From the NCBI RefSeq assembly GCF_058153355.1, contig NZ_CM177019.1: 64,000 bases of DNA; one strand, given 5' to 3'. The notes beneath the pieces are model-generated. The model did not search any database. It was given only the letters and a program-made list of their open reading frames with translations, and was not told the origin of the DNA. Positions 38,623-59,156 of this stretch are shown here, in pieces; the first letter of the stretch is position 1, and each line of letters opens with the position of its first letter. Both the position numbers and the translations under genes were made by a program.

Positions 38623-38629
38623 AACCCTC

Positions 38630-41044: not shown

Positions 41045-41135
41045 GCTTCCCTGAAAAAATGCGCTGATGGCAGTCTAAAAAATCAGGTGACAGGTGCGGG
41101 ATTATGGTGACAGGAAATAACCGGCAGGATGCCGG

Positions 41136-41558: not shown

Positions 41559-41670
41559 ATTTTCCCCCGGTTAACAGACAGAAAGATACACCACGGCACT
41601 GATGGTTATCAGAACCACAAGGGCAATCACTTTTATCGCACTCATCAGCGTGGACGGACCGAAACATTCA

Positions 41671-41901: not shown

Positions 41902-41978
41902 GATGATTTCCCCCGGTACGGTTATTCATCACAGGATATTGAGGACGTAAAAAAAGCCGGATTAACCGGCTTTACTGT

Positions 41979-42368
41979 TTACAGTAGTGAGGGCTGGTAC
42001 TGGCGGTATTTCAGCCGTCGCATCCGGCGAATGGCCTTGTAAACCGTATTGAAAGTGACACCATAACGGGTGGTCAGTTCGCTGACGTTGCGACCGTTAA
42101 AATCATTCCAGATACGCAAATCCCGAATCAGCGAGTCCAGAACCTGACCGCGTGGAATGTAGACCTGACCGCCGCCCAGATGCTTACAGATAGCCACAAC
42201 AATCTCCAGTGAATGGGCAGGATCAACACCCAGCCGGGACAATTCCCCGCGCAGTAAATCGTTCAGCTCCGCCAGCAGTGCCGGAAAGCGTGACGTATCC
42301 TCGGCGGGATTGTCAAGATGTGCCAGGATGGTGTCATCCTGCAAATCACCAAATAAATCTTCCGTCAT
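41979..42368 (-). CDS. mor: Middle-gene transcription activator Mor
   Basis: 129 aa; Mor/C family; follows gemA with a 4-bp overlap. Confidence 0.85.
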   Translation of the reverse strand: MTEDLFGDLQDDTILAHLDNPAEDTSRFPALLAELNDLLRGELSRLGVDPAHSLEIVVAICKHLGGGQVYIPRGQVLDSLIRDLRIWNDFNGRNVSELTTRYGVTFNTVYKAIRRMRRLKYRQYQPSLL

Positions 42369-42916
42369 TGTGCCATCCTCCGTGTCTTTCTGGCATGGGC
42401 ATAAGCCGCCGTCATGGCATCATAGCCGCGCAGTTCACGCCCGGACGGACTGACCGGCAACGGAAGCTCGTGACGGGAAAAGGCTTCACGAATACAGCGG
42501 ATGTGCCACTGCTTGAGTGTTTCGAGGACTGTCAGCAGCGTGTCGCCATGACACCACGCCAGTGTGGAAACGCCCTGTCCGCCGTTGCGTTTCGCGGTCA
42601 GGCGCTGAACATATTTATCCAGCGCCACATCACCGCCATCGGTAATAAAACCGTCTTCTGCCATCTGCTGCCAGACTTTGTATACCTTCTCGCGGGGCGT
42701 GACATGCCCCTTAAAGCGGCGACGTGGATGTTTATTCTGCTTCTTAAAGCCGCGTTCTTTCATGGCATCAATCACCTGTTCCAGTTGCGTAACCGTCAGC
42801 TCGCGGCAACTGATTTTGCCCGTTTTCTGCATCAGAAAGGCGCGGTAAGTATCGTCGCCGAGTTGTAGCTCCCGACGGGCGACATGGATTAATTTAATCA
42901 GGGATGTGCGATTCAT
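42365..42916 (-). CDS. gemA: GemA host-gene-expression modulator
   Basis: 183 aa directly upstream of mor. Confidence 0.75.
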   Translation of the reverse strand: MNRTSLIKLIHVARRELQLGDDTYRAFLMQKTGKISCRELTVTQLEQVIDAMKERGFKKQNKHPRRRFKGHVTPREKVYKVWQQMAEDGFITDGGDVALDKYVQRLTAKRNGGQGVSTLAWCHGDTLLTVLETLKQWHIRCIREAFSRHELPLPVSPSGRELRGYDAMTAAYAHARKTRRMAQ

Positions 42917-43190
42917 GATCGTACCTCCGGAAAGAGGCGGTGCTGCAACACCGCCTGAATTTACACATCAATCAGAGAGGATTTTATGGAAAATAATGTA
43001 CAACCTTATGATGTTGCAGGTTATGCGATTGCATCAGCACTGGTGCGCCTTCTGGTGAAGAAGGCGATCATCACCGCAGAAGAGGGCCAAGCCATTTTCA
43101 GCTCTTCAGCAGAGATTTTAAAAGATGCGCCTGCAATAAGAACAAGCCGCCGCGAAAACATGCAACTGTCAAAGATCATGGAAGACATTA

Positions 43191-43493
43191 TCAGTTCGTT
43201 AGACCCAGATGCTGACGGATCTCAAAAGCCTCAAACACATGAGCGTCAGTAACAATATCCTGGTCTGATAACCCCAGCCTGCGGCGGATGTACTCCTCGC
43301 GGGCTGTTTCATTTTGCAGTGCCACTACTGTTTCCAGACGATTCATTTCGCGGTTGATAATGTCACGGACTTCTCTGGCGGTGAGATTATGCTTAATACC
43401 ATATTCAACGATAGCGCGAACACGTTCCAGCATCCCTTTTTCAGCCATGACGTTATCAATATTAAGGGGAGTAAATTTATCTTCATTGTTCAT
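43191..43493 (-). CDS. Mu semi-essential early-region protein
   Basis: 100 aa; order. Confidence 0.45.
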   Translation of the reverse strand: MNNEDKFTPLNIDNVMAEKGMLERVRAIVEYGIKHNLTAREVRDIINREMNRLETVVALQNETAREEYIRRRLGLSDQDIVTDAHVFEAFEIRQHLGLTN

Positions 43494-43813
43494 TTTGCGG
43501 CCCTCAGAATAAATTCAGGATAAAATTTCAGACTCATTTGCCGTAACACATCCAGTGCAGCAACGGCTGCTGATTTATCGTTGCCATCAGCAATAGCGCG
43601 GAGATTTTCAATAATCCAGTGAGGACTCAGTGACTCAGCAACAATACCGAGTCGGTACGCCATGACCTCATCAATTGCACGGTTATAAGACGGGGCGTAT
43701 ACCGCCGCCACAAAGTTACCGATCACATCTTCAGGAAAACCCGCCGCCGTCAACAACGCTGTCAGTTCCTCGGATTTTGTAAATACGCCATTATTCATTC
43801 TGTTCACCTTCAC
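43490..43813 (-). CDS. Mu semi-essential early-region protein
   Basis: 107 aa. Confidence 0.45.
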   Translation of the reverse strand: MKVNRMNNGVFTKSEELTALLTAAGFPEDVIGNFVAAVYAPSYNRAIDEVMAYRLGIVAESLSPHWIIENLRAIADGNDKSAAVAALDVLRQMSLKFYPEFILRAAK

Positions 43814-44054
43814 AATTCATGCACGCCGTGTCATCGCCCATATCGCAGTGGTTGCATTTCTGCCCGCCACAATGGGGACACTCTTTCAGATATTCAGGGG
43901 ATTCATTACCGCAGGTCGGGCATTCCTGTTTCACCGTGGTGAATTTCCCCAGCCACGAATACGATGTTTCATTGTTTTCCATTGTTTGCCTCCGCCTGCT
44001 CCAGTGCCATAACTGGTGCGTCAGAACAGTCAAGAATGAGATAGCGCAGTACAT
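43791..44054 (-). CDS. Mu early-region Cys-rich small protein
   Basis: 87 aa; CPTCG...CPHCGGQKCNHC...CMNC zinc-ribbon-like cysteines. Confidence 0.45.
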   Translation of the reverse strand: MYCAISFLTVLTHQLWHWSRRRQTMENNETSYSWLGKFTTVKQECPTCGNESPEYLKECPHCGGQKCNHCDMGDDTACMNCEGEQNE

Positions 44055-44520
44055 GGTCGGTGATATTCCATGCGCTTGAGCTGCAAATAAAACGCCCCAG
44101 CCGGATATCGATATAAGCCATCACAAAACGGGGCATTCCCTGTTTGCACATCTCGTCATCCACTTCTGCAACGATGTGAACGGATTCACAGGTCAGTACG
44201 CCTGTCGCAAACTCTTTTGCCAGCGCGGGGATAGTATTACCTTCCACCCAGGGTAATGAGCGACGCCAGTTGCACCACACCGCATCATCAACGGCAGGCT
44301 GCTCAGTTGCGTTTCGTCTTACAGGCGGCGTCGGACGCGGGCGCGGAACGTCATAAAATCCGTTGCATTCGGTGAGCACTCCGGCATCAACCGCATCCCG
44401 CAGGAAATACACCATTGACGAGGGCAGCATCTTCATTTTTTCAGCCAGAACCCCGCAGGTCAGACGCCCGTAAGCCAGTAATAATGTGCTGACCCCATTC
44501 AGAACTTTTGCATCAATCAC
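43969..44520 (-). CDS. Mu semi-essential early-region protein
   Basis: 183 aa. Confidence 0.45.
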   Translation of the reverse strand: MIDAKVLNGVSTLLLAYGRLTCGVLAEKMKMLPSSMVYFLRDAVDAGVLTECNGFYDVPRPRPTPPVRRNATEQPAVDDAVWCNWRRSLPWVEGNTIPALAKEFATGVLTCESVHIVAEVDDEMCKQGMPRFVMAYIDIRLGRFICSSSAWNITDHVLRYLILDCSDAPVMALEQAEANNGKQ

Positions 44521-44523
44521 CGG

Positions 44524-45078
44524 TTATTCCTCCGTCAGTGCCACAAATTCAGAATGTTTAATACGCTGGCATTCGGAGGGAACTGGTCCTTTAACCTCAC
44601 CGTCCAGAAGGCGCACCTCAAACAAAATGCCGAATCCATCACGGGTGTGGTGCATCTCCCAGAGCGATTTGAAATCCCACATATTGGGTATGACATCAAC
44701 CCCAAGTTCATTGCACAGCCAGCCCGGAAAATCCGGGTATTTACCGAGCTGATTTTCATAGCCCCGGATAAGCTCCGCGTGTTCCCGGCCTGCTGGTGTT
44801 GTCATATCCGGCATCGCTGCCCATAACTGAATATCACCAATAAAAAGTGTCCTTGATTTAATCTCCCATCCTTCCGGTGGTAAACGGTTAAACCAGACAC
44901 GCGTAACCCTCTCAGGCCCTTTGTCACCAGACAAAAACACACCGCTTGCTTTCACTGATTGCTGTAATGACGCAATAATCTCACCACGCTTAACAGAAAC
45001 CTCTTTCAGCCAGCGAATCGTATAACCGTTAGCGGCTGCGTCACTCAGTTTAAAATAAGCACATGCTTTCATTTTCAT
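44524..45078 (-). CDS. Mu semi-essential early-region protein
   Basis: 184 aa. Confidence 0.45.
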   Translation of the reverse strand: MKMKACAYFKLSDAAANGYTIRWLKEVSVKRGEIIASLQQSVKASGVFLSGDKGPERVTRVWFNRLPPEGWEIKSRTLFIGDIQLWAAMPDMTTPAGREHAELIRGYENQLGKYPDFPGWLCNELGVDVIPNMWDFKSLWEMHHTRDGFGILFEVRLLDGEVKGPVPSECQRIKHSEFVALTEE

Positions 45079-45169
45079 TCTCTCCGGTTCTGATTAAGGC
45101 GCGAGTCGTCCCCTGACGCATCGCGCCATAATTAAACGAATGTGAATTAATTAAATATTAATGGTGGTA

Positions 45170-45694
45170 TTAAATACCGGCTTCCTGTTCAAACGGAATA
45201 ATGGAAAAATCTTCAATTCCCGATTTAACTGTAATTCCGGCAACACCTGCGACCGCTTTCGGTTCCAGTAAAATCGCTTCCTTGTTGATTTCCTGCTTCG
45301 TGCGAATAAAGCGTTGCAGGCCAAGACGCTCCAGCGTTTCCATCACTGCATCCATACCACGAATACTTACTGATGGTGGACGGACCCGCCACGATACATC
45401 ACCGGTGACAAGATTTGCCGTTTTCACTTTGCCGCCGTTTGTCAGTTCGTCGCGGTTCGCTTCACACCATCCCTGAACGCCTTTTGAAAGGGTTTCAATA
45501 TCGGTTTTAATCGGTGCAATCCGGGCTGCAAATTTCTCCGTAATTTCCGCGATGGCATCATTCATTTCCGTTTCCAGACGTGATGCTTCGCGCTGTAAGT
45601 CCCCGATGCGTTTAATATCGGTAATCACCGCATCGCGGTTTTGTGGCACATAAGCCGCTGCGGCACTTTTGATACGTTTTGCTGGTTTAGCCAT
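45170..45694 (-). CDS. gam: Gam (Ku-like DNA-end-binding host-nuclease inhibitor)
   Basis: 174 aa, MAKPAKRIKSAAAAYVPQN...; size and position as Mu Gam. Confidence 0.8.
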   Translation of the reverse strand: MAKPAKRIKSAAAAYVPQNRDAVITDIKRIGDLQREASRLETEMNDAIAEITEKFAARIAPIKTDIETLSKGVQGWCEANRDELTNGGKVKTANLVTGDVSWRVRPPSVSIRGMDAVMETLERLGLQRFIRTKQEINKEAILLEPKAVAGVAGITVKSGIEDFSIIPFEQEAGI

Positions 45695-45713
45695 AAATTA
45701 AAGCTCCTGTTAA

Positions 45714-46013
45714 TTAATATCCGCTGTATACAATGCTGGATACAGCTCGATTGCTTAATTCCATCTTTCGGGCAATGACATGAATATCCAGCCCTTCTTT
45801 ATAAAGTTCACGACATAAATATTTGTCGTGTTCACTGATTCGGTATACACACAATGATATTCCGTGCCTTCTGGCATGTGCCCGGAGGGCGGTTGTGGCG
45901 ACTTTCAGTTTTTCCGCCATTTCTTCAACGGTCATTTTCCCGACGTTGGCTTCGATAAATTCCCGGTCTTCGCGTGACCAGCGCTTACGATTACACTTCA
46001 TGTCAGCCACCAT
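45714..46013 (-). CDS. Mu early-region small protein, HTH-like
   Basis: 99 aa. Confidence 0.45.
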   Translation of the reverse strand: MVADMKCNRKRWSREDREFIEANVGKMTVEEMAEKLKVATTALRAHARRHGISLCVYRISEHDKYLCRELYKEGLDIHVIARKMELSNRAVSSIVYSGY

Positions 46014-46433
46014 TCAGTACAGCAGAGGCTCGCGCAGTGATGCCGGAATATGCCGCAGCGATAACTGAACCGCTTTCAGGGCAAGCGAGGAATAACAGCA
46101 GCGCGCCCGGCCTTTTGCCATTAACCGGTAATCGCGCCAGATACGCTGCCACATTTCACGGGCTTCAGGGTCTGATGCGCAGATGTATTCCCGGTCCATG
46201 ACGTACTCCCATAAATCCACGTTGAACGCACCGCCAAATGCAATGGCGCGGGATATGCTTTCGCCGCAATAACGCGCACAGATGCTGTAATGGTCGAAAG
46301 CAATCAGGTAAGTCTTTTCACCACAATCATCAACTTTCCGGGCGTAAATAAATCCGCGTAATTCACCACCGTTGTTATTGCGTCCCTGAATTCGGATTAA
46401 TGCCTGAATTTCATTTCGGATTTTGACGTTCAT
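46014..46433 (-). CDS. Mu early-region protein
   Basis: 139 aa. Confidence 0.45.
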   Translation of the reverse strand: MNVKIRNEIQALIRIQGRNNNGGELRGFIYARKVDDCGEKTYLIAFDHYSICARYCGESISRAIAFGGAFNVDLWEYVMDREYICASDPEAREMWQRIWRDYRLMAKGRARCCYSSLALKAVQLSLRHIPASLREPLLY

Positions 46434-46453
46434 TGTCAGCGCTCCTTTGCGAA

Positions 46454-46723
46454 TTAATGTTTAACCGCATTCACCGGATGTGGTACTAAATCACATTCAG
46501 CCTCCATACCCACTTTCTTCATAGTGGTCAGCATCTCATCTTTGGCCTTTTTAATAATTTCAGGAGCCATAGTCAGGACGATATTTGCCAGTAAATCATG
46601 AGGCCCGGTATTTTCCGTTGGCGAGATATCTGCAAGACATGCTTTTGCATCCAGAACTTCTCTGCGCCCATTGCAACCTTCACAACTTTCCAGCCATGTA
46701 AACTCAAAGATAACTTTTGCCAT
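46454..46723 (-). CDS. Mu early-region small protein
   Basis: 89 aa. Confidence 0.45.
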   Translation of the reverse strand: MAKVIFEFTWLESCEGCNGRREVLDAKACLADISPTENTGPHDLLANIVLTMAPEIIKKAKDEMLTTMKKVGMEAECDLVPHPVNAVKH

Positions 46724-46734
46724 TTTGTTTCCCC

Positions 46735-46989
46735 TTATTGATTCTGAATAACTGCGCTGGCTTTTACCTTCGCGCCTTTTACCTGCTTAAAGAAAACCGC
46801 GCTGCACCACGGACAACATGCAAAGGAGTCCCATACTTCATTTTCTGGTGAGCATTGCGTCATAATTTGCTCTTTGCACTTGGGGCAATTAAATGCAGTC
46901 AGAGCCACATTGTTATTCTGTACCCGTTTAACCCATTCAATATATTTTCCAGCTTTAGTACACATCGTTATCTCCAGATAATCTGGCAA
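46735..46989 (-). CDS. Mu early-region Cys-containing small protein
   Basis: 84 aa; CPKC...CCPWC pattern. Confidence 0.45.
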
Positions 46990-47195
46990 CCATTAAGACG
47001 GGCCGTCCATACAGAACGGGCCACCCCGGACTTATGCTCCATAATTCTGACCGCGTTTTTTACCAGTTCCACCGGTGGGTAAGTGATTTCAAGAATCGGA
47101 CGCGCCACGCCGAGATATGATTCATTTACATGACTCCCGCGCGCCTGTAACCAGTTCTGCGCATCCGTTGCCATTTTTATATTTCGGGCCATCAT
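46968..47195 (-). CDS. kil: Kil-position small protein
   Basis: 75 aa, first ORF downstream of B, as Mu kil. Confidence 0.55.
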
Positions 47196-47210
47196 AATTT
47201 CTTCTCCTTC

Positions 47211-48149
47211 TTAATTACGCAGCAGCGTTAAAATATCAACGTCCAGGTCTAATTCACGGAAAGCCTGACGCAGATAATCTTCGTTAACACGCTCACCTTT
47301 ACCATGAGCCGTCATGGCGGCAAGGCGAAGCGAATGATTCAGAATGCGAAGCGCACCGGGTTTCTGTGCAATTTGCTGTAACAACTCCAGTTCTTTTTCG
47401 CCGTTAATATGCCAGGCATCCGCAATAGCTTTTACATCGGCTTTTTTGGTTTTATTAATTGCAGTGGGCTTTGCAATACGGGAAAACAGACGGGCAAATT
47501 CAACCGTTCTGTTGCCCCCCGTCATATTTGAATAAACGCGGTGATTGCCCATCAGCACAAGGCCAGTGCGGGTTGATTCCTGTAACAGGCGGAGTTCTTC
47601 CAGAGCTTCAGCACCAAGATGATCAGCTTCGTCGATGATAACCAGCCCCTGTGTACCTTCAAGGCGGCGTCGCAGGGCGCGGGAGAGCGGCCCTTTACGG
47701 CGTGGTGCGTCATTCATTCCCAGCTCAAACGCCAGTTCAGTAAGACATTCCAGAACGCTGGCACAGGATGGCGTAATGGTGATCATCCAGACATTGTTAT
47801 TGGTGCGGCGATATTCACGGGCCGCTTCGGTTTTGCCCACACCAGGATTGCCACATACAACAGCAATACTTTCAGTCAGGCTGGCAAAACGCATACTTGT
47901 CCAGATTTGTTTTACCGTCTGCGTTTCCACAAAGCGGGGCGGTTCCGGTAGTTCTGCGACTGCATGATATTTTTCCAACCAGCGTTGCAGTATTTGTGCA
48001 ACACGTTCGTTATCCCCGTTGTACTTATCATTGATAAAACTACTGATAGTCCCGGTAGAAAGTCCGCTCTCAAGGGCAATTTGTTTAAAGGTGGTTTCTT
48101 CATTTTCTACAAGGGTGCGCAGTCCTGCGCGAATATCTGAAATATTCAT
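47211..48149 (-). CDS. B: Transposition ATPase / target DNA activator MuB
   Basis: 312 aa; N-terminal HTH, Walker A GNPGVGKT, Walker B VIIDEAD. Confidence 0.9.
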   Translation of the reverse strand: MNISDIRAGLRTLVENEETTFKQIALESGLSTGTISSFINDKYNGDNERVAQILQRWLEKYHAVAELPEPPRFVETQTVKQIWTSMRFASLTESIAVVCGNPGVGKTEAAREYRRTNNNVWMITITPSCASVLECLTELAFELGMNDAPRRKGPLSRALRRRLEGTQGLVIIDEADHLGAEALEELRLLQESTRTGLVLMGNHRVYSNMTGGNRTVEFARLFSRIAKPTAINKTKKADVKAIADAWHINGEKELELLQQIAQKPGALRILNHSLRLAAMTAHGKGERVNEDYLRQAFRELDLDVDILTLLRN

Positions 48150-48187
48150 CTGAATAACCTCGTAATTAAATTTTGTTAAAACGTTAA

Positions 48188-50179
48188 TTAAATGACTTTT
48201 TTACGTCTGTTCTGTTCCAGAATATCCAGCGAATGATTCAGATATTCATCACGCTCAGTTTCGTATTCATCATCACGCTCCTGATTCTTCACCCGTTCCG
48301 TATTACCGGAAGGCCGGAAAATGCTTACAATTCGTGATTCTGGTGCTTCAGGTTCGGCTATCTGCGGCAGCAGCTCTGCCACTTCCAGTGCATCCATTTG
48401 TTTCTGTGCCTTAATCGCTGCTTTCGTCGCAGATTTCAGTTGTTTCTGGCGGCGGCGATATTCACGGCCTGCCGCAGCATCATTAAACGCAACAGGTGCC
48501 AGACATTCCGCTTCACAGATAAACCGACCGTCCAGGGTGTAGCAATAAACCGTGCTGTGTAACTGCTGTGGATCAAATCTGACCACAACTTTTTTCACTC
48601 CGGCATTCATTAACGCCATGTTGTAATAAACGTTTTTCGCGCCTTTAAGGGAGCCGCCAACTTTAAGCGCGAACTCGCCTTTACGTGAAACGTTCACCGC
48701 CTCGGCAGGCAGTAACAGCATCCGTTTTTGCTCTTCGGTAGGCTTACGCACAATCGTTCTGGCGTATTCACGCTCAAAAACGTCATCAAACGAAAGTTTG
48801 CCCCCGCACATTTCTGTTTCTCGGCCTGTTCTGGCATTGAACATCGCCACACCTTCGGCAAGGGTTTTCAGAAACAGCTCTGCATCAACAGCGCGGTCGC
48901 CATAGTTATCAGGTTTTGCCTGCGGATTAGGCCCCGTATATGCGCCAGCCAGTGCCGGATGTTTATCAACGTATTCCTCAAGGCCACCAACACCGAAAGC
49001 ACGTTCTACAGGTTTTGCCTGGCCCCAGCCTTTACCGGCAACAACGCTTGTCCAGTGCATGGTCGCCCCCATCAGTAAAAACAGCCCCTTTGGATCGTCC
49101 TCTTTCACCTTAAAGCGGTAGCGATTGGGCGCGCCCCCCGTCAGCCATTTATTCGCAGCACCACGGGTGTTATCAATGGTGATGTGAAAATCCTCCGGGA
49201 TGCCGTAGCGTGTCACTACATCCATGAACGAGAGGCGAATTGAATCGATGTTCTCGCTAACATCGCAGCGCCAGCCCAGAATTTTTCGGGTTTTCACATC
49301 CTGCCAGAACCATGTTTTCGGGCGGATCACATCACCGTTAAACCAGCGTACAAAGACGTTATGCAGATAACCGTCGCCGTTGATCCACTGCATGGCGTCC
49401 AGGTGTTCCACAGTTCGTTGCTGTGCCGGTATCAGATGCATCAGTGCATGTTCACCTTCACGGCAGGCAACAACCATTGCCCCGTCCAGTTGCTGAATCC
49501 GGCGAAATGCCGTGGCTCGGGAGGGAATACTCCAGCCATGCTCGCGGGCTGCCAGTTCCAGACGCTCATAACATTTGCGGAAGGCGGGTTTTTCCGGTCG
49601 CAGATAATCTGCAATCAGAAACTGCCAGGCATCCTCGTCAAATTCACTTTTGTGAACATTGCGACGGGATGCTCCACGTCCATCAACAAGTGCAGCCGCC
49701 CAGTCAGGCTTCGCAAACTTCTGTACCTGGTAATACTTGTCCCGCAAAGTGGATGCGCTGACCTGGTAATGCCCTGCAACGGTCGCAAAAGCCGTTTTCG
49801 TTGAAATCCCCTGGTTCAGCATTTCGTCTGCAGCCTGAACCGCAGGCAACCATTTTTCAGCAAGTCTGCGCTGGGAATCGCTGGCGTTATCCCATTTGCT
49901 CCACAGTGCCTCACGATCATAATCATGGGCTTCCAGCGTGGGGCGGGCGATTTCAAAATACCCCTGACTTGTTTCAATCTCTCCTTGTCTCAGCAATAAC
50001 GCCGCTTTCGCTTCAACAGGTAAAGAGTTCGCATTGTATTCAATTGCTTTACCACCTTTGACACCTGCTCTAGTGCGGTTTTGCCATCCTTGCTTTTTAG
50101 CAACATAAATCACACCAGCCGATGTTTTCGGCAAACCAGGAAGATTCGCACACTCTTTCGGTGATACCCAAAGTTCCAT
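48188..50179 (-). CDS. A: DDE transposase MuA
   Basis: About 663 aa from [15 protein letters not shown] (ORF track starts 3 codons earlier at 50188); end- and enhancer-binding N-terminal domains, DDE core, C-terminal MuB/ClpX-interaction tail. Confidence 0.9.
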
Positions 50180-50180
50180 G

Positions 50181-50408
50181 TTATTCACCTGCTTGATATC
50201 GGCTAGGCCAGATTACTTCCGGTTTAGTTTCTAAGGCGTTAGCAATAATCTGCTCACCCTTTGGCCAGTGTCGTTCTAGCGCATTAGCTAATGTAGTTGG
50301 CGCATAACCGAACTGCCGGGAAAGAGCTGATAAAGAGAGCTTTCTTTTCTTAAGTCCCGCAATCACATCCGCTCGATGCCAATCACGGGCCTTTTCGTTG
50401 GAACACAT
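50181..50408 (-). CDS. ner: Ner (Cro-like early repressor)
   Basis: 75 aa HTH protein immediately upstream of A, divergent from c. Confidence 0.85.
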
Positions 50409-50577
50409 TTAAAAACCCTCCTAAGTTTTGTAATCTATAAAGTTAGCAATTTAACTAAGTGTAAAAACTTAGCTAGCTTGCTAAAAAGATAATTACTGAA
50501 AAGCTTTTTGTAAAGTTACTTTTTAGTAAATTTCTTTGATTACTGATTAATGCATTGATAAATAAGGGGTTTAAATT
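50409..50577. promoter_or_regulatory. c-ner operator / early promoter / transposition enhancer region
   Basis: AT-rich 169-bp divergent region between c and ner with repeated ...aaagttac/gtaact... motifs; corresponds by position to the Mu operator region. Confidence 0.6.
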
Positions 50578-51168
50578 TTGAAAAGTAACTTTATAGAAAA
50601 AGACGATACTGAAAAGTCAATTTGGTGTTCGCCGCAAGAAATTATGGCTGCTGATGGTATGCCTGGATCTGTTGCTGGTGTTCACTATCGAGCAAATGTT
50701 CAAGGCTGGACGAAGCGAAAAAAGGAAGGTGTCAAGGGGGGGAAAGCTGTTGAATACGATGTGATGTCTATGCCCACCAAAGAACGAGAGCAAGTTATTG
50801 CGCACTTGGGGTTATCCACACCGGATACTGGTGTTCAAGCCAATGAGAAACAGGATTCTTCGGAACTGATAAACAAATTAACCACAACCTTAATCAATAT
50901 GATTGAAGAGCTGGAACCAGATGAAGCACGCAAGGCACTGAAACTTTTAAGTAAAGGGGGGTTGTTGGCGTTAATGCCTCTTGTATTTAATGAACAGAAA
51001 CTTTACAGCTTTATAGGATTTTCACAGCAAAGTATTCAGACGTTGATGATGTTAGATGCATTACCTGAAGAAAAACGCAAAGAGATTTTGTCAAAGTATG
51101 GGATTCATGAACAGGAAAGTGTTGTAGTACCTTCACAGGAACCACAGGAGGTAAAAAAAGCCGTATAA
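50578..51168 (+). CDS. c: Mu repressor c
   Basis: 196 aa, MKSNFIEKDDTEKSIWCSPQEI...; only Mu gene transcribed away from the early operon; TTG start with upstream AAGGGG. Confidence 0.85.
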   Translation: MKSNFIEKDDTEKSIWCSPQEIMAADGMPGSVAGVHYRANVQGWTKRKKEGVKGGKAVEYDVMSMPTKEREQVIAHLGLSTPDTGVQANEKQDSSELINKLTTTLINMIEELEPDEARKALKLLSKGGLLALMPLVFNEQKLYSFIGFSQQSIQTLMMLDALPEEKRKEILSKYGIHEQESVVVPSQEPQEVKKAV

Positions 51169-51236
51169 CAACCATGAACCAGCTAAAACATACTTCACCT
51201 CACATAATCACACATGTAACATACCTAAACGGCATA

Positions 51237-51506
51237 AGCTGATTTGTGATATGAGTCATTTGGTGACAGCCTGGTTGTTATCGGTTTTGAACGTTTTTTG
51301 AAGCTGTTATTGAAATGATTTGCAGTGTTTTTGTTTTTCGTATTTTGAATGAAACAAAAGCAATTTTTTACTATCTTTCGCGTTTCATTGATTAACGACT
51401 AAAATTTGCGCTACAGGCTTGCAAGCCCCACCAAATCTAATCCCATCAGATCCCGAATAATCCAATGTCCTCCCGGTTTTTTTCGTACTTCAAGTGAATC
51501 AATACA
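51237..51506. other. Mu left-end terminal region (attL; MuA end-binding sites)
   Basis: Reverse complement of the Mu left-end sequence TGTATTGATTCACTTGAAGTACGAAAAAAACCGGGAGGACATTGGATTATTCGGGATCTGATGGGATTAGATTTGGTGGGGCTTGCAAGCC... as I recall it. Confidence 0.8.
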
Positions 51507-51540: not shown

Positions 51541-52443
51541 ATGCAAATCACCAACATGCATTGCAGTGGACAAACCGTTTCACTTGCCGCGGGGGATTAT
51601 CACGCGACTATCGTGACGGTTGGTGCTGGTCTGGCTGAATTAACTTTTCAGGGTTGTCATTTAGTCATCCCGCACAAACCCGAAGAGATGCCGCTGGCGC
51701 ATCTGGGTAAAGTGCTTATTCCGTGGCCGAACCGGATCGCCAACGGCTGTTACCGCTATCAGGGACAGGAATATCAGTTACCCATTAATGAACATAGTTC
51801 AAAAGCCGCTATTCACGGGCTGCTTGCCTGGCGAGACTGGCAAATTAGCGAATTAACCGCCACCAGCGTTACCCTGACAGCTTTTCTACCGCCCAGTTAC
51901 GGCTATCCGTTTATGCTGGCTTCGCAGGTTGTTTATTCGCTCAATGCTCGCACGGGCCTTTCCGTTGAGATCGCAAGCCAGAATATTGGTACTGTGACCG
52001 CACCTTATGGTGTGGGTATTCATCCTTATTTAACCTGCAACTTAACATCTGTTGATGACTATCTTTTCCAGCTTCCGGCAGAACAGGTTTATGCCGTCGA
52101 TGAGCACGCAAATCCGACAACGCTTCACCACGTTGATGAGCTGAATTTAAATTTCACGCGGGCGACAAAAATAGCCGCGACAAAAATAGACCATACCTTT
52201 AAAACCGCTAATGATCTGTGGGAAATGACCATTACCCATCCACAGCAGGCGCTGTCGGTGAGTCTTTGTTCCGATCAACCCTGGGTGCAGGTTTATAGCG
52301 GCGAAAAATTACAGCGTCAGGGACTGGCAGTTGAACCTATGAGTTGCCCGCCTAACGCCTTTAATTCAGGTATCGACTTATTATTACTGGAACCAGGAAA
52401 AACGCACCGCCTGTTTTTTAATATTCACGGGCAGCACAATTAA
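51541..52443 (+). CDS. yihR: Aldose 1-epimerase-family protein (sulfoquinovose mutarotase)
   Basis: Start MQITNMH... with RBS AAAGG; the longer 345-aa ORF (from 51406) begins inside Mu left-end DNA and is an artefact. Synteny between yihS and yihQ. Confidence 0.85.
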   Translation: MQITNMHCSGQTVSLAAGDYHATIVTVGAGLAELTFQGCHLVIPHKPEEMPLAHLGKVLIPWPNRIANGCYRYQGQEYQLPINEHSSKAAIHGLLAWRDWQISELTATSVTLTAFLPPSYGYPFMLASQVVYSLNARTGLSVEIASQNIGTVTAPYGVGIHPYLTCNLTSVDDYLFQLPAEQVYAVDEHANPTTLHHVDELNLNFTRATKIAATKIDHTFKTANDLWEMTITHPQQALSVSLCSDQPWVQVYSGEKLQRQGLAVEPMSCPPNAFNSGIDLLLLEPGKTHRLFFNIHGQHN

Positions 52444-52503
52444 TTTTATTAAGAAAAGAACGAGATTATTGTTTAGGGTTGTATTTACACAACAGGAAAT
52501 ATT

Positions 52504-53379
52504 ATGGACTTTTTTACGTTATTTTCGCCAGATGGGGCCATGCTGGAAACAAACGTGGTATGTATCGTTATCGCGTTGATGTTTCTTTATACCTTTGTGG
52601 GGATATGCGCGGGATTTGGTGGCGGTTTAACCACCATGCCACTCGTCACGTTAATGCTCCCCGTAAAAATGGCAACACCACTTTCGGTAATTGTCGGCAC
52701 CGCAACCGCCTTGTACGCCACCTGGCTATCACGCAAAGAAACGGATTGGCGCTCGGCAATGGTGCTGATTATTTTCTCATTTTTGGGAATACCCGTCGGT
52801 TTATATGCGCTGTCATATTTACCCGACCATTTTATGAAAGTGGGCTTAGGTGGATTTCTTATCCTCTACTCCTTTTACAGCATGTTTATTCCTCGCTTGC
52901 CGATTTATGACCGTAACTGGATCGCCGCACCTATCGGCGCAGTAGCTGGCGCATTAGGCGCGGCGTTCTCAACCAACGGGCCGCCGATGGTTATCTACGG
53001 GATGCTGCGTAACTTAGGTCCGGCGGCATTTCGCGGCACTCTGAACGCTTTCTTCACCGCAAACAACATCGCGGTGATCGGCGGGCTGGCGACCAGCGGA
53101 ATTTTGACTGTTTCTATCTTTAAACTGGTGCTGTTTTGTATTCCCACCATGATCCTCGGTTCACTGATTGGACAATATGTGCATAAACGCATTTCGGTCA
53201 AAGTGTTTCGTGTGATGGTCTTTTTATTGTTGATTGCCTCCGGTTCTATGTTGATAAAAGGTGCGTTGGGAATTCCCGCCGCTGCCGCACTTCTGCCTCC
53301 GTTTACCTTGTTAGTTATACTGCAACTGGCATTTGGTAAAAAAGTGGCGGCAATCCGCCGGGCTGAAGAAAGTAAATAA
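52504..53379 (+). CDS. TauE/SafE-like polytopic membrane protein (putative sulfonate/sulfite-type anion exporter)
   Basis: 291 aa, very hydrophobic with Gly-rich helices (GFGGGLTT, GAVAGALGAAFSTNGPP); co-oriented inside the yihR-yihQ interval. Confidence 0.65.
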   Translation: MDFFTLFSPDGAMLETNVVCIVIALMFLYTFVGICAGFGGGLTTMPLVTLMLPVKMATPLSVIVGTATALYATWLSRKETDWRSAMVLIIFSFLGIPVGLYALSYLPDHFMKVGLGGFLILYSFYSMFIPRLPIYDRNWIAAPIGAVAGALGAAFSTNGPPMVIYGMLRNLGPAAFRGTLNAFFTANNIAVIGGLATSGILTVSIFKLVLFCIPTMILGSLIGQYVHKRISVKVFRVMVFLLLIASGSMLIKGALGIPAAAALLPPFTLLVILQLAFGKKVAAIRRAEESK

Positions 53380-53485
53380 TCATTATGCGGGTTTTAATTT
53401 ATACCTTCACACATTCTTTAATTAATGAAACCTGTAATAACAGGATGGCATGAAATATTAGTTTTATACTCTATGGAGATTATTT

Positions 53486-55522
53486 ATGGATACGCCACGC
53501 CCACAGTTATTAGATTTTCAATTTCATCAGAATAACGACAGTTTTACTCTACGTTTTCAAGACCGTCTTATTTTAATCCATAGCAAAGATAATCCTTGCT
53601 TATCGATTGGCTCAGGTATAGCGGATATCGATATGTTCCGCGGTAATTTCAGCATTAAAGATAAATTGCAGGAGAAGATTGCGCTCACCGACGCCATCGT
53701 CAGCCAGTCACCGGATGGCTGGTTAATCCATTTCAGCCGTGGTTCTGACATTAGCGCCACGCTGCGTATCTCTGCCGACGATCAGGGCCGTTTATTGCTG
53801 GAACTACAAAACGACAACCATCACCACAACCGCATCTGGCTGCGTCTTGCCGCACAACCAGAGGACCATATCTACGGCTGCGGCGAACAATTCTCCTACT
53901 TTGATCTGCGCGGCAAACCGTTCCCGCTATGGACCAGTGAACAAGGCGTTGGTCGCAACAAACAAACCTATGTCACCTGGCAGGCCGACTGCAAAGAGAA
54001 CGCGGGCGGCGACTATTACTGGACTTTCTTCCCGCAGCCTACTTTTGTCAGCACGCAGAAGTATTACTGCCATGTCGATAACAGCTGCTATATGAACTTC
54101 GACTTCAGTGCTCCGGAATACCATGAACTGGCATTGTGGGAAGACAATGCCACCCTGCGTTTTGAATGTGCGGACACATACATCTCCCTGTTGGAAAAAT
54201 TAACCGCCCTGCTGGGACGTCAGCCAGAACTGCCCGACTGGATTTATGACGGGGTAACGCTAGGTATTCAGGGCGGGACAGATGTATGCCAGAAGAAACT
54301 GGATACCATGCGTAACGCGGGTGTGAAGGTCAACGGCATCTGGGCGCAGGACTGGTCCGGGATCCGCATGACCTCGTTTGGCAAACGTGTGATGTGGAAC
54401 TGGAAGTGGAACAGTGAAAACTACCCACAGTTAGATTCCCGCATCAAGCAATGGAAAGAAGAAGGCGTGCAGTTCCTCGCCTACATCAACCCGTATGTTG
54501 CCAGCGATAAGGACCTCTGCGCCGAGGCGGCTTCACATGGCTATCTGGCAAAAGATGCCTCTGGCGGTGACTATCTGGTGGAATTTGGGGAGTTTTACGG
54601 CGGCGTTGTCGATTTGACCAATCCTGAAGCATATTCCTGGTTCAAAGAAGTCATCAAGAAAAACATGATCGAATTGGGCTGCGGCGGCTGGATGGCAGAT
54701 TTTGGCGAATACTTGCCGACCGATACGTATCTGCATAACGGCGTTAGCGCCGAAATTATGCATAACGCCTGGCCCGCACTGTGGGCGAAATGTAACTACG
54801 AAGCCCTTGAAGAAACGGGCAAGCTTGGCGAGATCCTTTTCTTTATGCGCGCCGGTTCTACCGGTAGCCAGAAATACTCCACCATGATGTGGGCGGGCGA
54901 CCAGAACGTCGACTGGAGTCTGGACGATGGCCTGGCGTCGGTTGTTCCGGCGGCGCTCTCGCTGGCGATGACCGGGCATGGCCTGCATCACAGTGACATT
55001 GGCGGTTACACCACCCTGTTTGAGATGAAGCGCAGCAAAGAGCTGCTGCTGCGCTGGTGCGATTTCAGCGCCTTCACGCCGATGATGCGCACCCACGAAG
55101 GTAACCGTCCTGGCGACAACTGGCAGTTTGACGGCGACGCGGAAACCATCGCCCATTTTGCCCGTATGACCACCGTCTTCACCACCCTGAAACCTTACCT
55201 CAAAGACGCCGTCGCGCTGAATGCGAAGTCCGGCCTGCCGGTTATGCGCCCGCTGTTCCTGCATTACGAAGACGACGCGCAGACCTACACCCTGAAATAT
55301 CAGTACCTGTTAGGCCGCGACATTCTGGTCGCTCCGGTGCATGAACAAGGCCGTAGCGACTGGACGCTCTATCTGCCGGAGGATAACTGGGTCCACGCCT
55401 GGACAGGTGAAGCGTTCCGGGGCGGGGAAGTTACCGTTAATGCGCCCATCGGTAAACCGCCGGTCTTTTATCGCGCCGATAGCGAATGGGCGGCACTGTT
55501 CGCGTCGTTAAAAAGCATCTAA
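53486..55522 (+). CDS. yihQ: Sulfoquinovosidase (GH31 alpha-glycosidase)
   Basis: 678 aa; GH31-like catalytic region (WAQDWSG..., GGWMADFGE); synteny. Confidence 0.9.
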   Translation: MDTPRPQLLDFQFHQNNDSFTLRFQDRLILIHSKDNPCLSIGSGIADIDMFRGNFSIKDKLQEKIALTDAIVSQSPDGWLIHFSRGSDISATLRISADDQGRLLLELQNDNHHHNRIWLRLAAQPEDHIYGCGEQFSYFDLRGKPFPLWTSEQGVGRNKQTYVTWQADCKENAGGDYYWTFFPQPTFVSTQKYYCHVDNSCYMNFDFSAPEYHELALWEDNATLRFECADTYISLLEKLTALLGRQPELPDWIYDGVTLGIQGGTDVCQKKLDTMRNAGVKVNGIWAQDWSGIRMTSFGKRVMWNWKWNSENYPQLDSRIKQWKEEGVQFLAYINPYVASDKDLCAEAASHGYLAKDASGGDYLVEFGEFYGGVVDLTNPEAYSWFKEVIKKNMIELGCGGWMADFGEYLPTDTYLHNGVSAEIMHNAWPALWAKCNYEALEETGKLGEILFFMRAGSTGSQKYSTMMWAGDQNVDWSLDDGLASVVPAALSLAMTGHGLHHSDIGGYTTLFEMKRSKELLLRWCDFSAFTPMMRTHEGNRPGDNWQFDGDAETIAHFARMTTVFTTLKPYLKDAVALNAKSGLPVMRPLFLHYEDDAQTYTLKYQYLLGRDILVAPVHEQGRSDWTLYLPEDNWVHAWTGEAFRGGEVTVNAPIGKPPVFYRADSEWAALFASLKSI

Positions 55523-55567
55523 TCACGTCCGCCCGTGGGGAAACTCACGGGCAAAGGGAGAACAACG

Positions 55568-56953
55568 ATGAGTCACATCACAACGGAAGATCCGGCTACT
55601 TTACGTCTGCCCTTTAAAGAGAAACTCTCTTACGGTATCGGCGATCTGGCCTCTAACATCCTGCTGGATATCGGCACGCTTTATCTTTTGAAGTTTTATA
55701 CCGACGTTCTGGGGCTGCCCGGTACCTATGGCGGCATTATCTTTTTGATTTCGAAGTTCTTTACTGCGTTTACCGATATGGGTACCGGCATCATGCTCGA
55801 TTCCCGACGCAAGATCGGTCCAAAAGGTAAGTTCCGTCCTTTTATTCTGTATGCGTCATTCCCGGTCACCTTACTGGCGATCGCCAACTTTGTCGGCACA
55901 CCGTTTGATGTCACCGGTAAAACGGTGATGGCCACTATCCTGTTTATGCTCTACGGGCTGTTTTTCAGCATGATGAACTGCTCTTATGGCGCAATGGTCC
56001 CCGCTATTACCAAAAACCCCAACGAACGCGCATCACTGGCGGCATGGCGTCAGGGTGGCGCTACATTGGGCCTGCTGCTTTGTACGGTGGGATTCGTGCC
56101 GGTTATGAATCTTATCGAGGGTAATCAGCAACTTGGCTATATCTTCGCCGCCACGCTGTTTTCACTGTTCGGCCTGCTGTTTATGTGGATCTGCTATTCG
56201 GGCGTGAAAGAGCGTTATGTCGAAACGCAACCTGCAAATCCGGCGCAAAAGCCTGGCTTGTTGCAGTCTTTCCGCGCAATTGCGGGTAACCGCCCACTGT
56301 TCATTCTGTGTATTGCCAACCTCTGCACCTTAGGGGCGTTTAACGTCAAGCTCGCCATCCAGGTCTATTACACCCAGTACGTACTTAACGATCCCATCCT
56401 GTTGTCGTATATGGGATTTTTCAGCATGGGCTGTATTTTCATCGGCGTGTTCCTGATGCCTGGCGCAGTCAGACGTTTTGGTAAGAAGAAGGTCTATATC
56501 GGCGGTCTGCTGATCTGGGTGCTGGGCGATCTGCTCAACTATTTCTTCGGCGGCGGCTCGGTTAGCTTTGTGGCGTTCTCCTGCCTGGCATTCTTCGGCT
56601 CGGCGTTTGTTAACAGCCTGAACTGGGCACTGGTTTCTGACACCGTCGAGTACGGCGAGTGGCGCACCGGTGTGCGTTCGGAAGGTACGGTCTACACCGG
56701 CTTCACCTTCTTTCGCAAAGTTTCTCAGGCGCTGGCAGGCTTCTTCCCTGGCTGGATGCTGACGCAAATCGGCTATGTACCAAACGTCGCCCAGGCTGAC
56801 CACACCATTGAAGGGTTGCGCCAGCTGATCTTCATCTACCCAAGCGCACTGGCGGTAGTCACCATTGTTGCGATGGGTTGCTTCTACAGCCTGAACGAGA
56901 AGATGTACGTCCGCATTGTAGAAGAAATAGAAGCCCGTAAACGCACGGCATAA
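55568..56953 (+). CDS. yihP: GPH-family glycoside/cation symporter
   Basis: 12-TM transporter; start trimmed to MSHITTEDP with RBS AAAGGGAGA (ORF track from 55535). Confidence 0.85.
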   Translation: MSHITTEDPATLRLPFKEKLSYGIGDLASNILLDIGTLYLLKFYTDVLGLPGTYGGIIFLISKFFTAFTDMGTGIMLDSRRKIGPKGKFRPFILYASFPVTLLAIANFVGTPFDVTGKTVMATILFMLYGLFFSMMNCSYGAMVPAITKNPNERASLAAWRQGGATLGLLLCTVGFVPVMNLIEGNQQLGYIFAATLFSLFGLLFMWICYSGVKERYVETQPANPAQKPGLLQSFRAIAGNRPLFILCIANLCTLGAFNVKLAIQVYYTQYVLNDPILLSYMGFFSMGCIFIGVFLMPGAVRRFGKKKVYIGGLLIWVLGDLLNYFFGGGSVSFVAFSCLAFFGSAFVNSLNWALVSDTVEYGEWRTGVRSEGTVYTGFTFFRKVSQALAGFFPGWMLTQIGYVPNVAQADHTIEGLRQLIFIYPSALAVVTIVAMGCFYSLNEKMYVRIVEEIEARKRTA

Positions 56954-56982: not shown

Positions 56983-56993
56983 AAGGAGTGATT

Positions 56994-58397
56994 ATGTCTG
57001 ACCATAATCCACTGACATTAAAACTGAATCTGCGGGAAAAAATCGCTTATGGCATGGGCGACGTCGGTTCGAATTTAATGCTTAGCATCGGCACTCTGTA
57101 TCTCCTCAAATTTTATACCGATGAATTAGGGATGCCTGCTTACTATGGCGGGATTATCTTTCTGGTGGCGAAATTCTTTACCGCGTTTACCGATATGCTC
57201 ACCGGATTTTTACTCGACTCGCGGAAAAATATTGGGCCTAAAGGCAAATTTCGTCCCTTTATTTTATATGCAGCGGTTCCGGCGGCGTTAATTGCAACGC
57301 TCCAGTTTATCGCCACCACTTTTAGTTTGCCGATTAAAACGACGATTGCCACCGCGCTGTTTATGATGTTTGGACTTTCATACAGTCTGATGAACTGCTC
57401 GTATGGCGCGATGATCCCAGCAATTACCAAAAACCCCAATGAGCGCGCGCAGCTTGCGGCTTACCGCCAGGGTGGTGCAACCATAGGGCTATTGATTTGT
57501 ACCGTAGCATTTATTCCATTGCAGTCGCTTTTTTCTGACTCCACTGTCGGTTATGCCTGCGCGGCACTGATGTTCTCCATTGGTGGCTTTATTTTTATGA
57601 TGCTGTGCTACAGAGGCGTCAAAGAGCATTATGTGGACACGACGCCAACCGGACATAAAGCCAGTATTCTCAAATCTTTTTGCGCGATATTTCGTAATCC
57701 GCCATTGCTGGTTTTATGCATTGCTAACCTGTGTACCCTGGCGGCATTTAATATCAAACTGGCAATTCAGGTCTATTACACCCAGTATGTGCTGAATGAT
57801 ATTAATTTATTGTCGTGGATGGGATTCTTCAGTATGGGATGCATCCTCATCGGCGTATTGCTGGTGCCATTAACTGTAAAATATTTTGGTAAAAAACAGG
57901 TTTATTTAGCTGGCATGGTGCTGTGGGCGGTGGGGGATATCCTGAATTATTTCTGGGGCAGTAACTCTTTCACTTTCGTCATGTTCTCTTGTGTCGCCTT
58001 TTTTGGTACGGCCTTTGTAAACAGCCTGAACTGGGCGCTGGTACCGGATACCGTAGATTATGGTGAATGGAAAACAGGTATACGTGCCGAAGGTTCTGTT
58101 TATACCGGTTATACCTTCTTTCGTAAAATTTCAGCCGCACTTGCTGGCTTCTTGCCAGGCATTATGCTGACGCAAATCGGTTATGTTCCCAACATCGCGC
58201 AAAGCGATGCAACATTACAGGGTTTGCGTCAGCTCATTTTTATTTGGCCTTGTGCGCTGGCGATAATTGCTGCATTGACGATGGGATTCTTTTACACGCT
58301 CAATGAAAAACGTTTTGCGATGATTATTGAGGAAGTTAACCAACGCAAAAATAAAGAAATTAAGACAGAAGAAAAAACGGCTTCCGTAACGTTATAA
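56994..58397 (+). CDS. yihO: GPH-family transporter (sulfoquinovose/sulfoquinovosyl-glycerol uptake), paralogue of yihP
   Basis: Paralogous to yihP (shared LYLLKFYTD, FTAFTDM, NCSYGAM motifs); ATG at 56994 preceded by TAAGGAG. Confidence 0.85.
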   Translation: MSDHNPLTLKLNLREKIAYGMGDVGSNLMLSIGTLYLLKFYTDELGMPAYYGGIIFLVAKFFTAFTDMLTGFLLDSRKNIGPKGKFRPFILYAAVPAALIATLQFIATTFSLPIKTTIATALFMMFGLSYSLMNCSYGAMIPAITKNPNERAQLAAYRQGGATIGLLICTVAFIPLQSLFSDSTVGYACAALMFSIGGFIFMMLCYRGVKEHYVDTTPTGHKASILKSFCAIFRNPPLLVLCIANLCTLAAFNIKLAIQVYYTQYVLNDINLLSWMGFFSMGCILIGVLLVPLTVKYFGKKQVYLAGMVLWAVGDILNYFWGSNSFTFVMFSCVAFFGTAFVNSLNWALVPDTVDYGEWKTGIRAEGSVYTGYTFFRKISAALAGFLPGIMLTQIGYVPNIAQSDATLQGLRQLIFIWPCALAIIAALTMGFFYTLNEKRFAMIIEEVNQRKNKEIKTEEKTASVTL

Positions 58398-58463
58398 AAA
58401 CAATAGCCGCTATGACCATCTACAGGGATGGCGGCCTTCCTACATATAAAAAATGGATTTAAT

Positions 58464-59156
58464 ATGAAAAAGTTAAATGCAATAATTTTATTATCCTCTC
58501 TGACTTCCGCATCGGTATTCGCAGGCGCATACGTCGAAAACAGGGAGGCATATAATCTCGCCTCCGATCAGGGCGAGGTTATGCTACGTGTGGGTTATAA
58601 CTTCGATATGGGCGCGGGTATCATGTTAACCAATACCTACAACTTTCAGCGAGAAGATGAACTAAAACATGGATATAACGAAATCGAAGGTTGGTATCCT
58701 TTATTTAAACCAACCGATAAATTAACCATCCAGCCCGGTGGCTTAATTAATGATAAGAGCGCCGGTTCCGGTGGTGCTGTTTATCTGGATGTTAACTACA
58801 AATTTGCCCCGTGGTTTAACCTGACGGTACGCAACCGTTTTAACCATAATAACTACAGCACAACCGATTTAAACGGTGATCTGGATAATAATGACAGCTA
58901 CGAGATTGGTAACTACTGGAACTTTATTATTACCGATAAGTTCTCATATACCTTTGAACCGCATTATTTTTATAATATTAATGATTTCAACAGCAGCAAT
59001 GGCACCAAGCATCACTGGGAAATCACTAACACCTTCCGTTACCGAATTAATGAGCACTGGCTGCCCTATATTGAATTGCGCTGGTTAGACCGCAACGTCG
59101 AGCCGTACCACCGCGAGCAAAACCAGATCCGTATCGGGACGAAGTATTTCTTCTGA
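58464..59156 (+). CDS. ompL: Outer-membrane porin OmpL
   Basis: Start MKKLNAIILLSSLTSASVFA (signal peptide); beta-barrel-like alternating pattern, C-terminal ...KYFF; ORF track begins 36 bp earlier. Confidence 0.85.
   Translation: MKKLNAIILLSSLTSASVFAGAYVENREAYNLASDQGEVMLRVGYNFDMGAGIMLTNTYNFQREDELKHGYNEIEGWYPLFKPTDKLTIQPGGLINDKSAGSGGAVYLDVNYKFAPWFNLTVRNRFNHNNYSTTDLNGDLDNNDSYEIGNYWNFIITDKFSYTFEPHYFYNINDFNSSNGTKHHWEITNTFRYRINEHWLPYIELRWLDRNVEPYHREQNQIRIGTKYFF

Follow-up and report, generated by a model that had tools for sequence, protein, structure and literature searches.

In a 64,000-nucleotide stretch of NCBI RefSeq assembly GCF_058153355.1 (contig NZ_CM177019.1), referred to here as the window, we analysed a tauE-like gene that lies within the sulfoquinovose (SQ) gene cluster and is a candidate for the export step of sulfoglycolysis. 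The gene, hereafter tauE, occupies positions 52504..53379 of the + strand as an intact 291-aa open reading frame (ORF) with an ATG start, according to the ORF listing of the window, and is preceded by a Shine–Dalgarno (SD) sequence, AGGA at 52494..52497 (+), read from the sequence 6 nt 5′ of the ATG. Its product, assigned to the TSUP (TauE/SafE) membrane transporters from the ORF, Pfam PF01925, RefSeq identity, an AlphaFold2 (AF2) model and the ratio of non-synonymous to synonymous substitution rates (dN/dS), is 100% identical by tblastn to WP_000345431.1 of Escherichia coli Z0117EC0005, which RefSeq names 'sulfite exporter TauE/SafE family protein'. A first-pass annotation made from the sequence alone had described a polytopic 291-aa membrane protein of the TauE/SafE type encoded between yihR and yihQ, and these points were confirmed: the ORF is exact, hydropathy segments and AF2 helices agree, the PF01925 profile search gave 122.8 bits against a cutoff of 32.6, and matches to NF011719 (yihR) and NF007746 (yihQ) flank the gene.

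The 5′ neighbour, yihR (51541..52443, +), encodes a 300-aa SQ mutarotase/aldose-1-epimerase and ends 60 bp before tauE. Its NCBIfam NF011719 match (615 bits) covers residues 46–344 of a longer, 345-aa ORF, and the RefSeq yihR of Z0117EC0005 aligns from the ATG at 51541. On the 3′ side, 106 bp separate tauE from yihQ (53486..55522, +), the gene for the sulfoquinovosidase of family GH31 (NCBIfam NF007746, 1239 bits; Pfam GH31 domains). Three further genes follow on the same strand: yihP (55535..56953), encoding a GPH/MFS_2 permease (Pfam MFS_2, 261 bits; Z0117EC0005 annotation), with coordinates that are those of the longest ORF and a start that RefSeq places ∼33 nt later in the relative Z0117EC0005; yihO (56988..58397), encoding a second GPH/MFS_2 permease (Pfam MFS_2, 267 bits; Z0117EC0005 annotation), the SQ importer in K-12; and the porin gene ompL (58428..59156), the final gene of the cluster, identified by tblastn and by annotation in Z0117EC0005 and MC4100. 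A promoter and terminator scan of the yihR–tauE–yihQ intervals found no promoter-like site on the + strand and, beyond weak intragenic hairpins, no convincing terminator. These results are compatible with co-transcription but do not prove it; tauE is probably co-transcribed with yihR and yihQPO–ompL. On the 3′ side of ompL, genes of the STM4015–STM4011 family (a hydrolase and two radical-SAM proteins) occupy positions 59337–63232. They are also present in Salmonella and in E. coli Z0117EC0005, K-12 having yihN/yihM instead, and this region is a second presence/absence difference at the locus.

The remaining pathway genes were located as ORFs and by tblastn to annotated genes. On the + strand lie yihU (sulfolactaldehyde reductase, 11693–12589), yihT (aldolase, 12613–13491) and yihS (isomerase, 13507–14748), all three 97–100% identical to the annotated genes of Z0117EC0005 and MC4100, and divergent from yihU, on the − strand, lie csqR/yihW (9810–10619) and yihV (sulfofructose kinase, 10629–11531). 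A Mu-like prophage of 36,719 bp (14788..51506, −) in the yihS–yihR spacer separates yihUTS from yihR–tauE–yihQPO–ompL. It was delimited by junction alignment to the empty site in Z0117EC0005, the closest relative free of the prophage, and by its ends as read from the sequence, which are canonical Mu ends with a 5-bp target duplication, CCGGG, at 14783–14787 and 51507–51511. Over 7.2 kb, the prophage shares 97.2% identity with Shigella phage SfMu, and it carries ORFs resembling MuA, MuB and a repressor. Its attL (repressor) end is placed 34 bp 5′ of the yihR start, 29 bp of this interval (51512–51540) following the duplicated CCGGG. The longer yihR ORF of 345 aa begins with a TTG at 51406, within the Mu left end, and is an ORF-calling artefact of the insertion; the real start is the ATG at 51541. 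Among E. coli, Z0117EC0005 is the closest relative. Its annotation marks yihT (9039–9917 of its locus) as a pseudogene interrupted by an internal stop and the STM4015-family gene (19071–19918) as frameshifted, which suggests that the pathway may be decaying in that lineage; tauE is intact there.

The TauE/SafE proteins constitute the TSUP family (Pfam PF01925; TC 2.A.102). The PF01925 match of the tauE protein (E = 2.4e-35; the cutoff given above is the gathering cutoff) spans residues 23–248 and profile positions 2–235 of 237, and all homologues of the protein carry the same, precomputed assignment. No NCBIfam model matched the protein at E ≤ 0.01, hence there is no finer curated name. The AF2 model, computed from a 60-sequence alignment with a mean predicted local distance difference test score (pLDDT) of 93.5 and a predicted template modelling score of 0.88, is all-helical and polytopic, in keeping with the ∼8 transmembrane segments expected of the TSUP family, and its 11 helices, with which the hydropathy segments agree, form two long–short–long–long–long sets and a C-terminal helix (259–290). 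Two Gly/Pro-rich motifs, GFGGG (37–41) and STNGPP (156–161), sit at equivalent helix breaks of the model. The TSUP family reportedly goes back to an internal duplication of a unit of four transmembrane segments. The helix pattern and the paired motifs are compatible with an internal repeat, and hhalign comparison of the N-half with the C-half of the tauE-family alignment detected no sequence signal for a 4+4 repeat (probability 0.5%, E = 0.13). A profile sequence search of the PDB for a TSUP structure or ligand complex returned only noise (E ≥ 0.3), and Foldseek of the model against the PDB gave no match at E ≤ 0.001. The best coherent Foldseek match, the undecaprenyl-pyrophosphate phosphatase BacA, was discarded as too weak for a mechanistic claim (template modelling score 0.46).

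Relatives were sought by an exhaustive HMMER search of 1.8 billion representatives of clusters at 50% identity. Only one full-length representative of the tauE clade was found (80% identity, 510 bits), all full-length relatives above 50% identity collapsing into this one cluster; among the matches listed, high-identity representatives of 81–204 aa were partial matches. The next relatives scored 143 bits with ≤ 38% identity over proteins of ∼240 aa, and the search returned none between 38% and 65% identity. Three of these relatives outside the clade (P0127, P0130 and P0131) stand in unrelated, generic or uninformative gene contexts that gave no functional lead. By this measure of sequence the tauE clade is isolated. 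Its members are set apart from the next relatives by 49 invariant positions concentrated in helices 1–3 and 8, e.g. G33 for R/Q, G40 for D, N181 for Q and L195 for H. They also have the extra C-terminal helix, with the exception of the most distant orthologue, that of Craterilacuibacter sinensis (9965–10774 of its locus, 65% identity), which ends directly after helix 10; as the gammaproteobacterial members all possess the helix, it is a later addition. Comparison with E. whittamii gave a dN/dS of 0.014. The gene is intact, conserved and under purifying selection; its ORF did not arise by chance.

We then compared tauE loci in other bacteria, scanning one genome per species and classifying the flanking genes by tblastn with the Yih proteins of the window and with the Hafnia neighbours. 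The resulting 31 species comprise 28 loci from the genome scan together with Salmonella, Hafnia and Klebsiella. In all 31, an orthologue of 65–99% identity with an intact reading frame lies inside a sulfoglycolysis cluster, and every cluster encodes one or more permeases of the GPH or SSF family in addition to a YihU-type reductase, so that TauE is never the sole transporter. The Salmonella orthologue is 86% identical over its full length, and identities of 80–86% were found for Salmonella, Leminorella, Enterobacter, Pantoea, Kluyvera, Raoultella, Hafnia, Mixta, Klebsiella and others.

Three arrangements were distinguished. In the first of two sulfo-Embden–Meyerhof–Parnas (sulfo-EMP) arrangements, EMP-A, the order is yihR–tauE–yihQ, as in Escherichia (including E. 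whittamii), Salmonella, a Citrobacter sp., Mangrovibacter, Superficieibacter and a metagenome-assembled genome; AAGGA/AGGAA and the ATG at the tauE start are kept across these orthologues. In the second, EMP-B, tauE stands between yihQ and yihP/O (Kluyvera, C. freundii, Pantoea, Lelliottia, Atlantibacter and Klebsiella), so the gene occupies two insertion positions among sulfo-EMP clusters. The third is of the sulfo-Entner–Doudoroff (sulfo-ED) type, with an SSF permease gene followed by genes for a dehydratase, an HpcH aldolase, an epimerase, a lactonase, a reductase and an SDR protein, and tauE last; it was found in Hafnia, Mixta, Leminorella, Edwardsiella, Buttiauxella, Vibrio, Aeromonas and the betaproteobacterium Craterilacuibacter. 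The Hafnia reductase is of the beta-hydroxyacid-dehydrogenase type; it shares 30% identity (E = 1e-37) and its Pfam domains with YihU. A neighbour-joining tree, computed without support values, groups the proteins by arrangement, with the ED-type members basal and Escherichia within EMP-A beside Salmonella and Citrobacter.

Enterobacter sp. ENT03 (L019) and Citrobacter amalonaticus (L017) have a sulfo-ED-type cluster ending in tauE only a few kb from a complete or partial sulfo-EMP cluster that lacks a tauE or yihR of its own, which suggests that the two pathways may share one transporter and one mutarotase. In Enterobacter sp. 10-1 (L032), the ED-type cluster is flanked by csqR-like and ompL-like genes only.

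Within E. coli, tauE is a variable gene. Among 5426 complete genomes, 1295 contain a tauE CDS, which is always chromosomal and annotated 'sulfite exporter TauE/SafE family protein', and 3909 contain yihQ; ∼33% of the yihQ-positive genomes, including those of O157:H7, O55:H7 and enterotoxigenic E. coli (ETEC) H10407, carry tauE. At the sensitivity of megablast, yihQ itself seems to be absent from ∼28% of the 5426 genomes. The E. coli sulfo-EMP cluster has been described as 10 genes (ompL and yihO–yihW), with a syntenic Salmonella operon (PMC8006165); tauE is outside this canonical K-12 set and adds an 11th gene to the cluster in Salmonella and in ∼33% of yih-positive E. coli. The first-pass annotation had placed yihR and yihQ next to each other in K-12, and this was upheld: in the K-12 derivative MC4100, yihR ends at 8144 and yihQ starts at 8343 (locus positions), leaving a 198-bp spacer with no annotated gene.

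The same spacer is present in three tauE-minus strains, which argues for a single origin of this allele. Its 3′ 57 bp (spacer positions 142–198) are homologous to window positions 53427–53485, with a local alignment score of 53 against a shuffle maximum of 31. Within this stretch, in which the two haplotypes regain homology, a perfect 14-bp palindrome, CCTGTAATAACAGG, lies in the tauE–yihQ spacer of the window (53431..53444), 41 bp 5′ of the yihQ start. With small variations, it occurs in tauE-plus and tauE-minus Escherichia haplotypes and is absent from the Salmonella spacer; the promoter and terminator scan flagged it only as a terminator-like site of the minus strand, and it may act as an operator or form an RNA hairpin. 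A positional alignment of the K-12 spacer with Salmonella revealed a possible vestigial SD, an ATG and ∼6 codons (23 of 29 nt), a resemblance that is no more than suggestive of a remnant of the tauE start. In the spacer, the SD and ATG are followed, at 8192–8236 of the MC4100 locus, by a 14-codon ORF (MYLQFIKLKTAQLL), the first nucleotides of which resemble the Salmonella tauE start region, and this ORF may be what is left of a deleted tauE.

The first-pass annotation had called tauE an extra gene embedded in the operon. Its absence from K-12 is correct, and the implied polarity is not, because the gene is found at the identical site in Salmonella, Citrobacter, Mangrovibacter, Superficieibacter and E. 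whittamii. This distribution makes ancestral presence most likely and K-12 the loss allele. At the yihR–yihQ site, tauE is thus probably ancestral to Escherichia and Salmonella and was probably lost once, giving rise to the 198-bp-spacer haplotype of K-12 and of about two-thirds of yih-positive E. coli. In agreement with ancestral presence and later loss, the G + C content of tauE (48.6%) equals that of yihR, and its non-synonymous divergence (dN) from Salmonella is similar to that of yihQ (0.091 and 0.079 respectively). We considered recent horizontal acquisition of tauE and rejected it on the G + C content, the yihQ-like dN and the position of Escherichia beside Salmonella and Citrobacter in the tree. 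The distribution of tauE also warns that the K-12 cluster does not represent the full ancestral gene set.

What would such a transporter do? We consider it rather probable that tauE encodes a conserved, selected TSUP secondary transporter of enterobacterial sulfoglycolysis, ancestral and lost in the K-12 haplotype, that exports 2,3-dihydroxypropane-1-sulfonate (DHPS). In the proposed scheme, the GPH permeases YihO/YihP, or the SSF permease in sulfo-ED-type clusters, would take up SQ and SQ glycosides, the YihU-type reductase would convert sulfolactaldehyde to DHPS, and TauE would export this C3-sulfonate end product. As both cluster types share SQ as input and a YihU-type reductase, DHPS is the expected product in both. 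The first-pass annotation had already proposed a product exporter, and this idea is strengthened by the linkage, in 31 of 31 species, to two pathway types that always include the reductase; DHPS as the substrate and export as the direction are what we infer from sequence. TauE-type proteins have likewise been predicted to export sulfolactate or DHPS in sulfo-transaldolase (sulfo-TAL) clusters (PMC7491151) and in Arthrobacter sulfo-EMP clusters (PMC8873060).

The permeases encoded alongside tauE bear on the same question. In the clusters of Klebsiella, Lelliottia and one uncultured Enterobacter, a single YihO-like permease accompanies TauE, and this is a minimal importer-plus-exporter set. YihO and YihP are paralogues with 64% identity, so that a split between them into a sulfosugar importer and a C3-sulfonate exporter would be mechanistically awkward, and YihP has been considered only 'most likely' to be the DHPS exporter (PMC6278857). 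We therefore regard TauE, on comparative grounds, as the better candidate for the export step. A further-reaching version, offered tentatively and as something we would not quite wager on, is that in enterobacterial sulfoglycolysis the native exporter of DHPS is TauE and not YihP, that YihP is a second importer, perhaps for sulfoquinovosyl glycerol, that K-12 is a natural tauE deletion mutant shedding DHPS via a moonlighting transporter, and that the exporter module was recruited from sulfo-ED into sulfo-EMP clusters at two positions.

Several observations weigh against DHPS export by an ancestral TauE. K-12, without tauE, grows on SQ and excretes DHPS (literature cited in PMC6278857), which means that tauE is dispensable and that another exporter exists, and about two-thirds of yih-positive E. 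coli are likewise without the gene. The TSUP proteins include uptake permeases, and TauE proteins of sulfo-EMP and sulfo-ED clusters have been read as importers (PMC8940949). The linkage in 31 of 31 species does not amount to 31 independent events, because the species are related and the cluster moves as a unit. As for the history of the site, we infer the polarity of the deletion from outgroup parsimony and a weak vestige only, and the 5′ 141 bp of the K-12 spacer do not resemble the tauE allele significantly (score 19, the shuffle mean being 19). Expression or mutant studies of tauE were not found in the searchable literature.

Of the other functions that could be assigned to TauE, uptake of SQ or of a glycoside such as SQ-glycerol survives best, as a third route beside YihO/YihP or a further one beside the SSF permease. 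The TSUP family takes its name from an uptake permease, the published reading of TauE/TSUP proteins in sulfo-EMP and sulfo-ED clusters has them importing SQ and its glycosides (PMC8940949), and strict linkage to clusters with SQ as the common input suits an importer as well as an exporter. However, one or two GPH or SSF symporters, which belong to classical sugar-importer families, are already encoded in every cluster, an observation that we counted in favour of TauE as an exporter; deletion of yihO alone abolishes growth of K-12 on SQ (PMC6278857); the tauE clade was found only beside reductase-type, DHPS-forming clusters; and TauE is a small protein from a family whose characterized or predicted substrates are small anions. 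Taken with these points, we regard uptake as unlikely.

TauE might instead be a safety valve for another anion of the pathway, namely sulfolactate, sulfolactaldehyde or an accumulated sulfosugar intermediate. An auxiliary role of this kind would fit the dispensability of the gene in K-12-type strains, and TauE-type proteins of other clusters have been linked to sulfolactate; the clade-specific substitutions show that the pocket differs from that of generic relatives, not what it binds. Yet a sulfolactaldehyde dehydrogenase is absent from the clusters examined, so that sulfolactate is not an expected product, and it is more parsimonious to assume export of the stoichiometric product, which has to leave the cell. 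This function therefore seems to us quite improbable, more so than uptake.

Export of sulfite released in sulfonate breakdown is what the RefSeq product name would imply if taken literally, and sulfite export was also proposed for TauE of Cupriavidus necator, with which the family was founded (cited in PMC8873060). The gene contexts speak against it. The neighbours in EMP clusters encode an isomerase, kinase, aldolase, reductase, mutarotase and glycosidase, and those in ED-type clusters a dehydrogenase, lactonase, dehydratase, aldolase and reductase; none of these listed neighbours has a recognizable desulfonating-enzyme domain, which makes literal sulfite export unlikely. Moreover, in the sulfo-EMP pathway the sulfonate leaves the cell intact, as DHPS (PMC6278857). 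The name is a family label, and no NCBIfam model matched. We consider sulfite export very improbable. That tauE is a decaying or functionless passenger hitch-hiking with the cluster is hardly credible, since its absence from about two-thirds of yih-positive E. coli, without obvious pathway loss, is countered by the intact frame in all 31 species, the low dN/dS, the 80–86% identity across Enterobacterales and the very confident fold prediction.

Of all steps in the E. coli pathway, export alone is without an experimental assignment, and YihP was picked for it by elimination, in a strain that lacks tauE. The gene thus represents a concrete export candidate tied to DHPS-forming clusters, and its presence in Salmonella, O157:H7 and ETEC, but not in K-12, provides natural plus/minus strains for testing. 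If TauE is the native exporter, the textbook 10-gene scheme misses a dedicated export step of a pathway whose substrate, SQ, is a major dietary and environmental sulfur compound and whose product, DHPS, nourishes sulfide-producing bacteria of the gut when Enterobacteriaceae excrete it. The gene already has a generic RefSeq annotation, and a TauE-type transporter co-encoded with sulfoglycolysis is a familiar kind of protein; the conceptual advance is modest, as such exporters are the default prediction in other sulfoglycolysis clusters. In the open literature that we searched, the possible presence of TauE in sulfo-EMP clusters was mentioned only in passing (PMC8940949). New here is one tight orthologous clade that is common to two pathway types, probably ancestral at its site and lost in K-12.

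Among known systems, TauE of Arthrobacter sp. AK04 is similar to that of the window in being a TauE/TSUP gene product of a (modified) sulfo-EMP cluster that was interpreted as a C3-sulfonate exporter (PMC8873060). That cluster, however, is actinobacterial and has a sulfolactaldehyde dehydrogenase, which makes sulfolactate its product, an ABC importer and no sulfoquinovosidase, and the two TauE proteins are not orthologous at the 50% level. SftE, known from sulfo-TAL (SFT) clusters in Bacillus aryabhattai SOS1 and in gut Firmicutes (PMC7491151), shares its Pfam family with the window's TauE, is likewise co-encoded with an SQ-degradation cluster ending in a C3 sulfonate, and its export function is likewise predicted. 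It differs in pathway and phylum and is at best a distant paralogue, as judged from the gap between 38% and 65% identity in the exhaustive search.

The founders of the family (DUF81/TSUP), TauE of C. necator H16 and SafE, share the profile and, like tauE of the window, are small polytopic anion transporters of organosulfonate metabolism. The role proposed for them is the export of sulfite or sulfoacetate that arises in desulfonating pathways (Weinitschke et al. 2007, cited in PMC8873060), whereas the clusters of the tauE clade would release no sulfite and its proteins have the extra C-terminal helix (259–290) and ∼49 clade-specific substitutions. YihP of K-12, the presumed DHPS exporter, belongs to the same gene cluster and, like TauE, could carry out the export step. 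It is, however, a protein of 12 transmembrane segments from an unrelated family (GPH/MFS_2), closely akin to YihO as noted above, and is missing from the tauE-bearing clusters of Klebsiella and Lelliottia.

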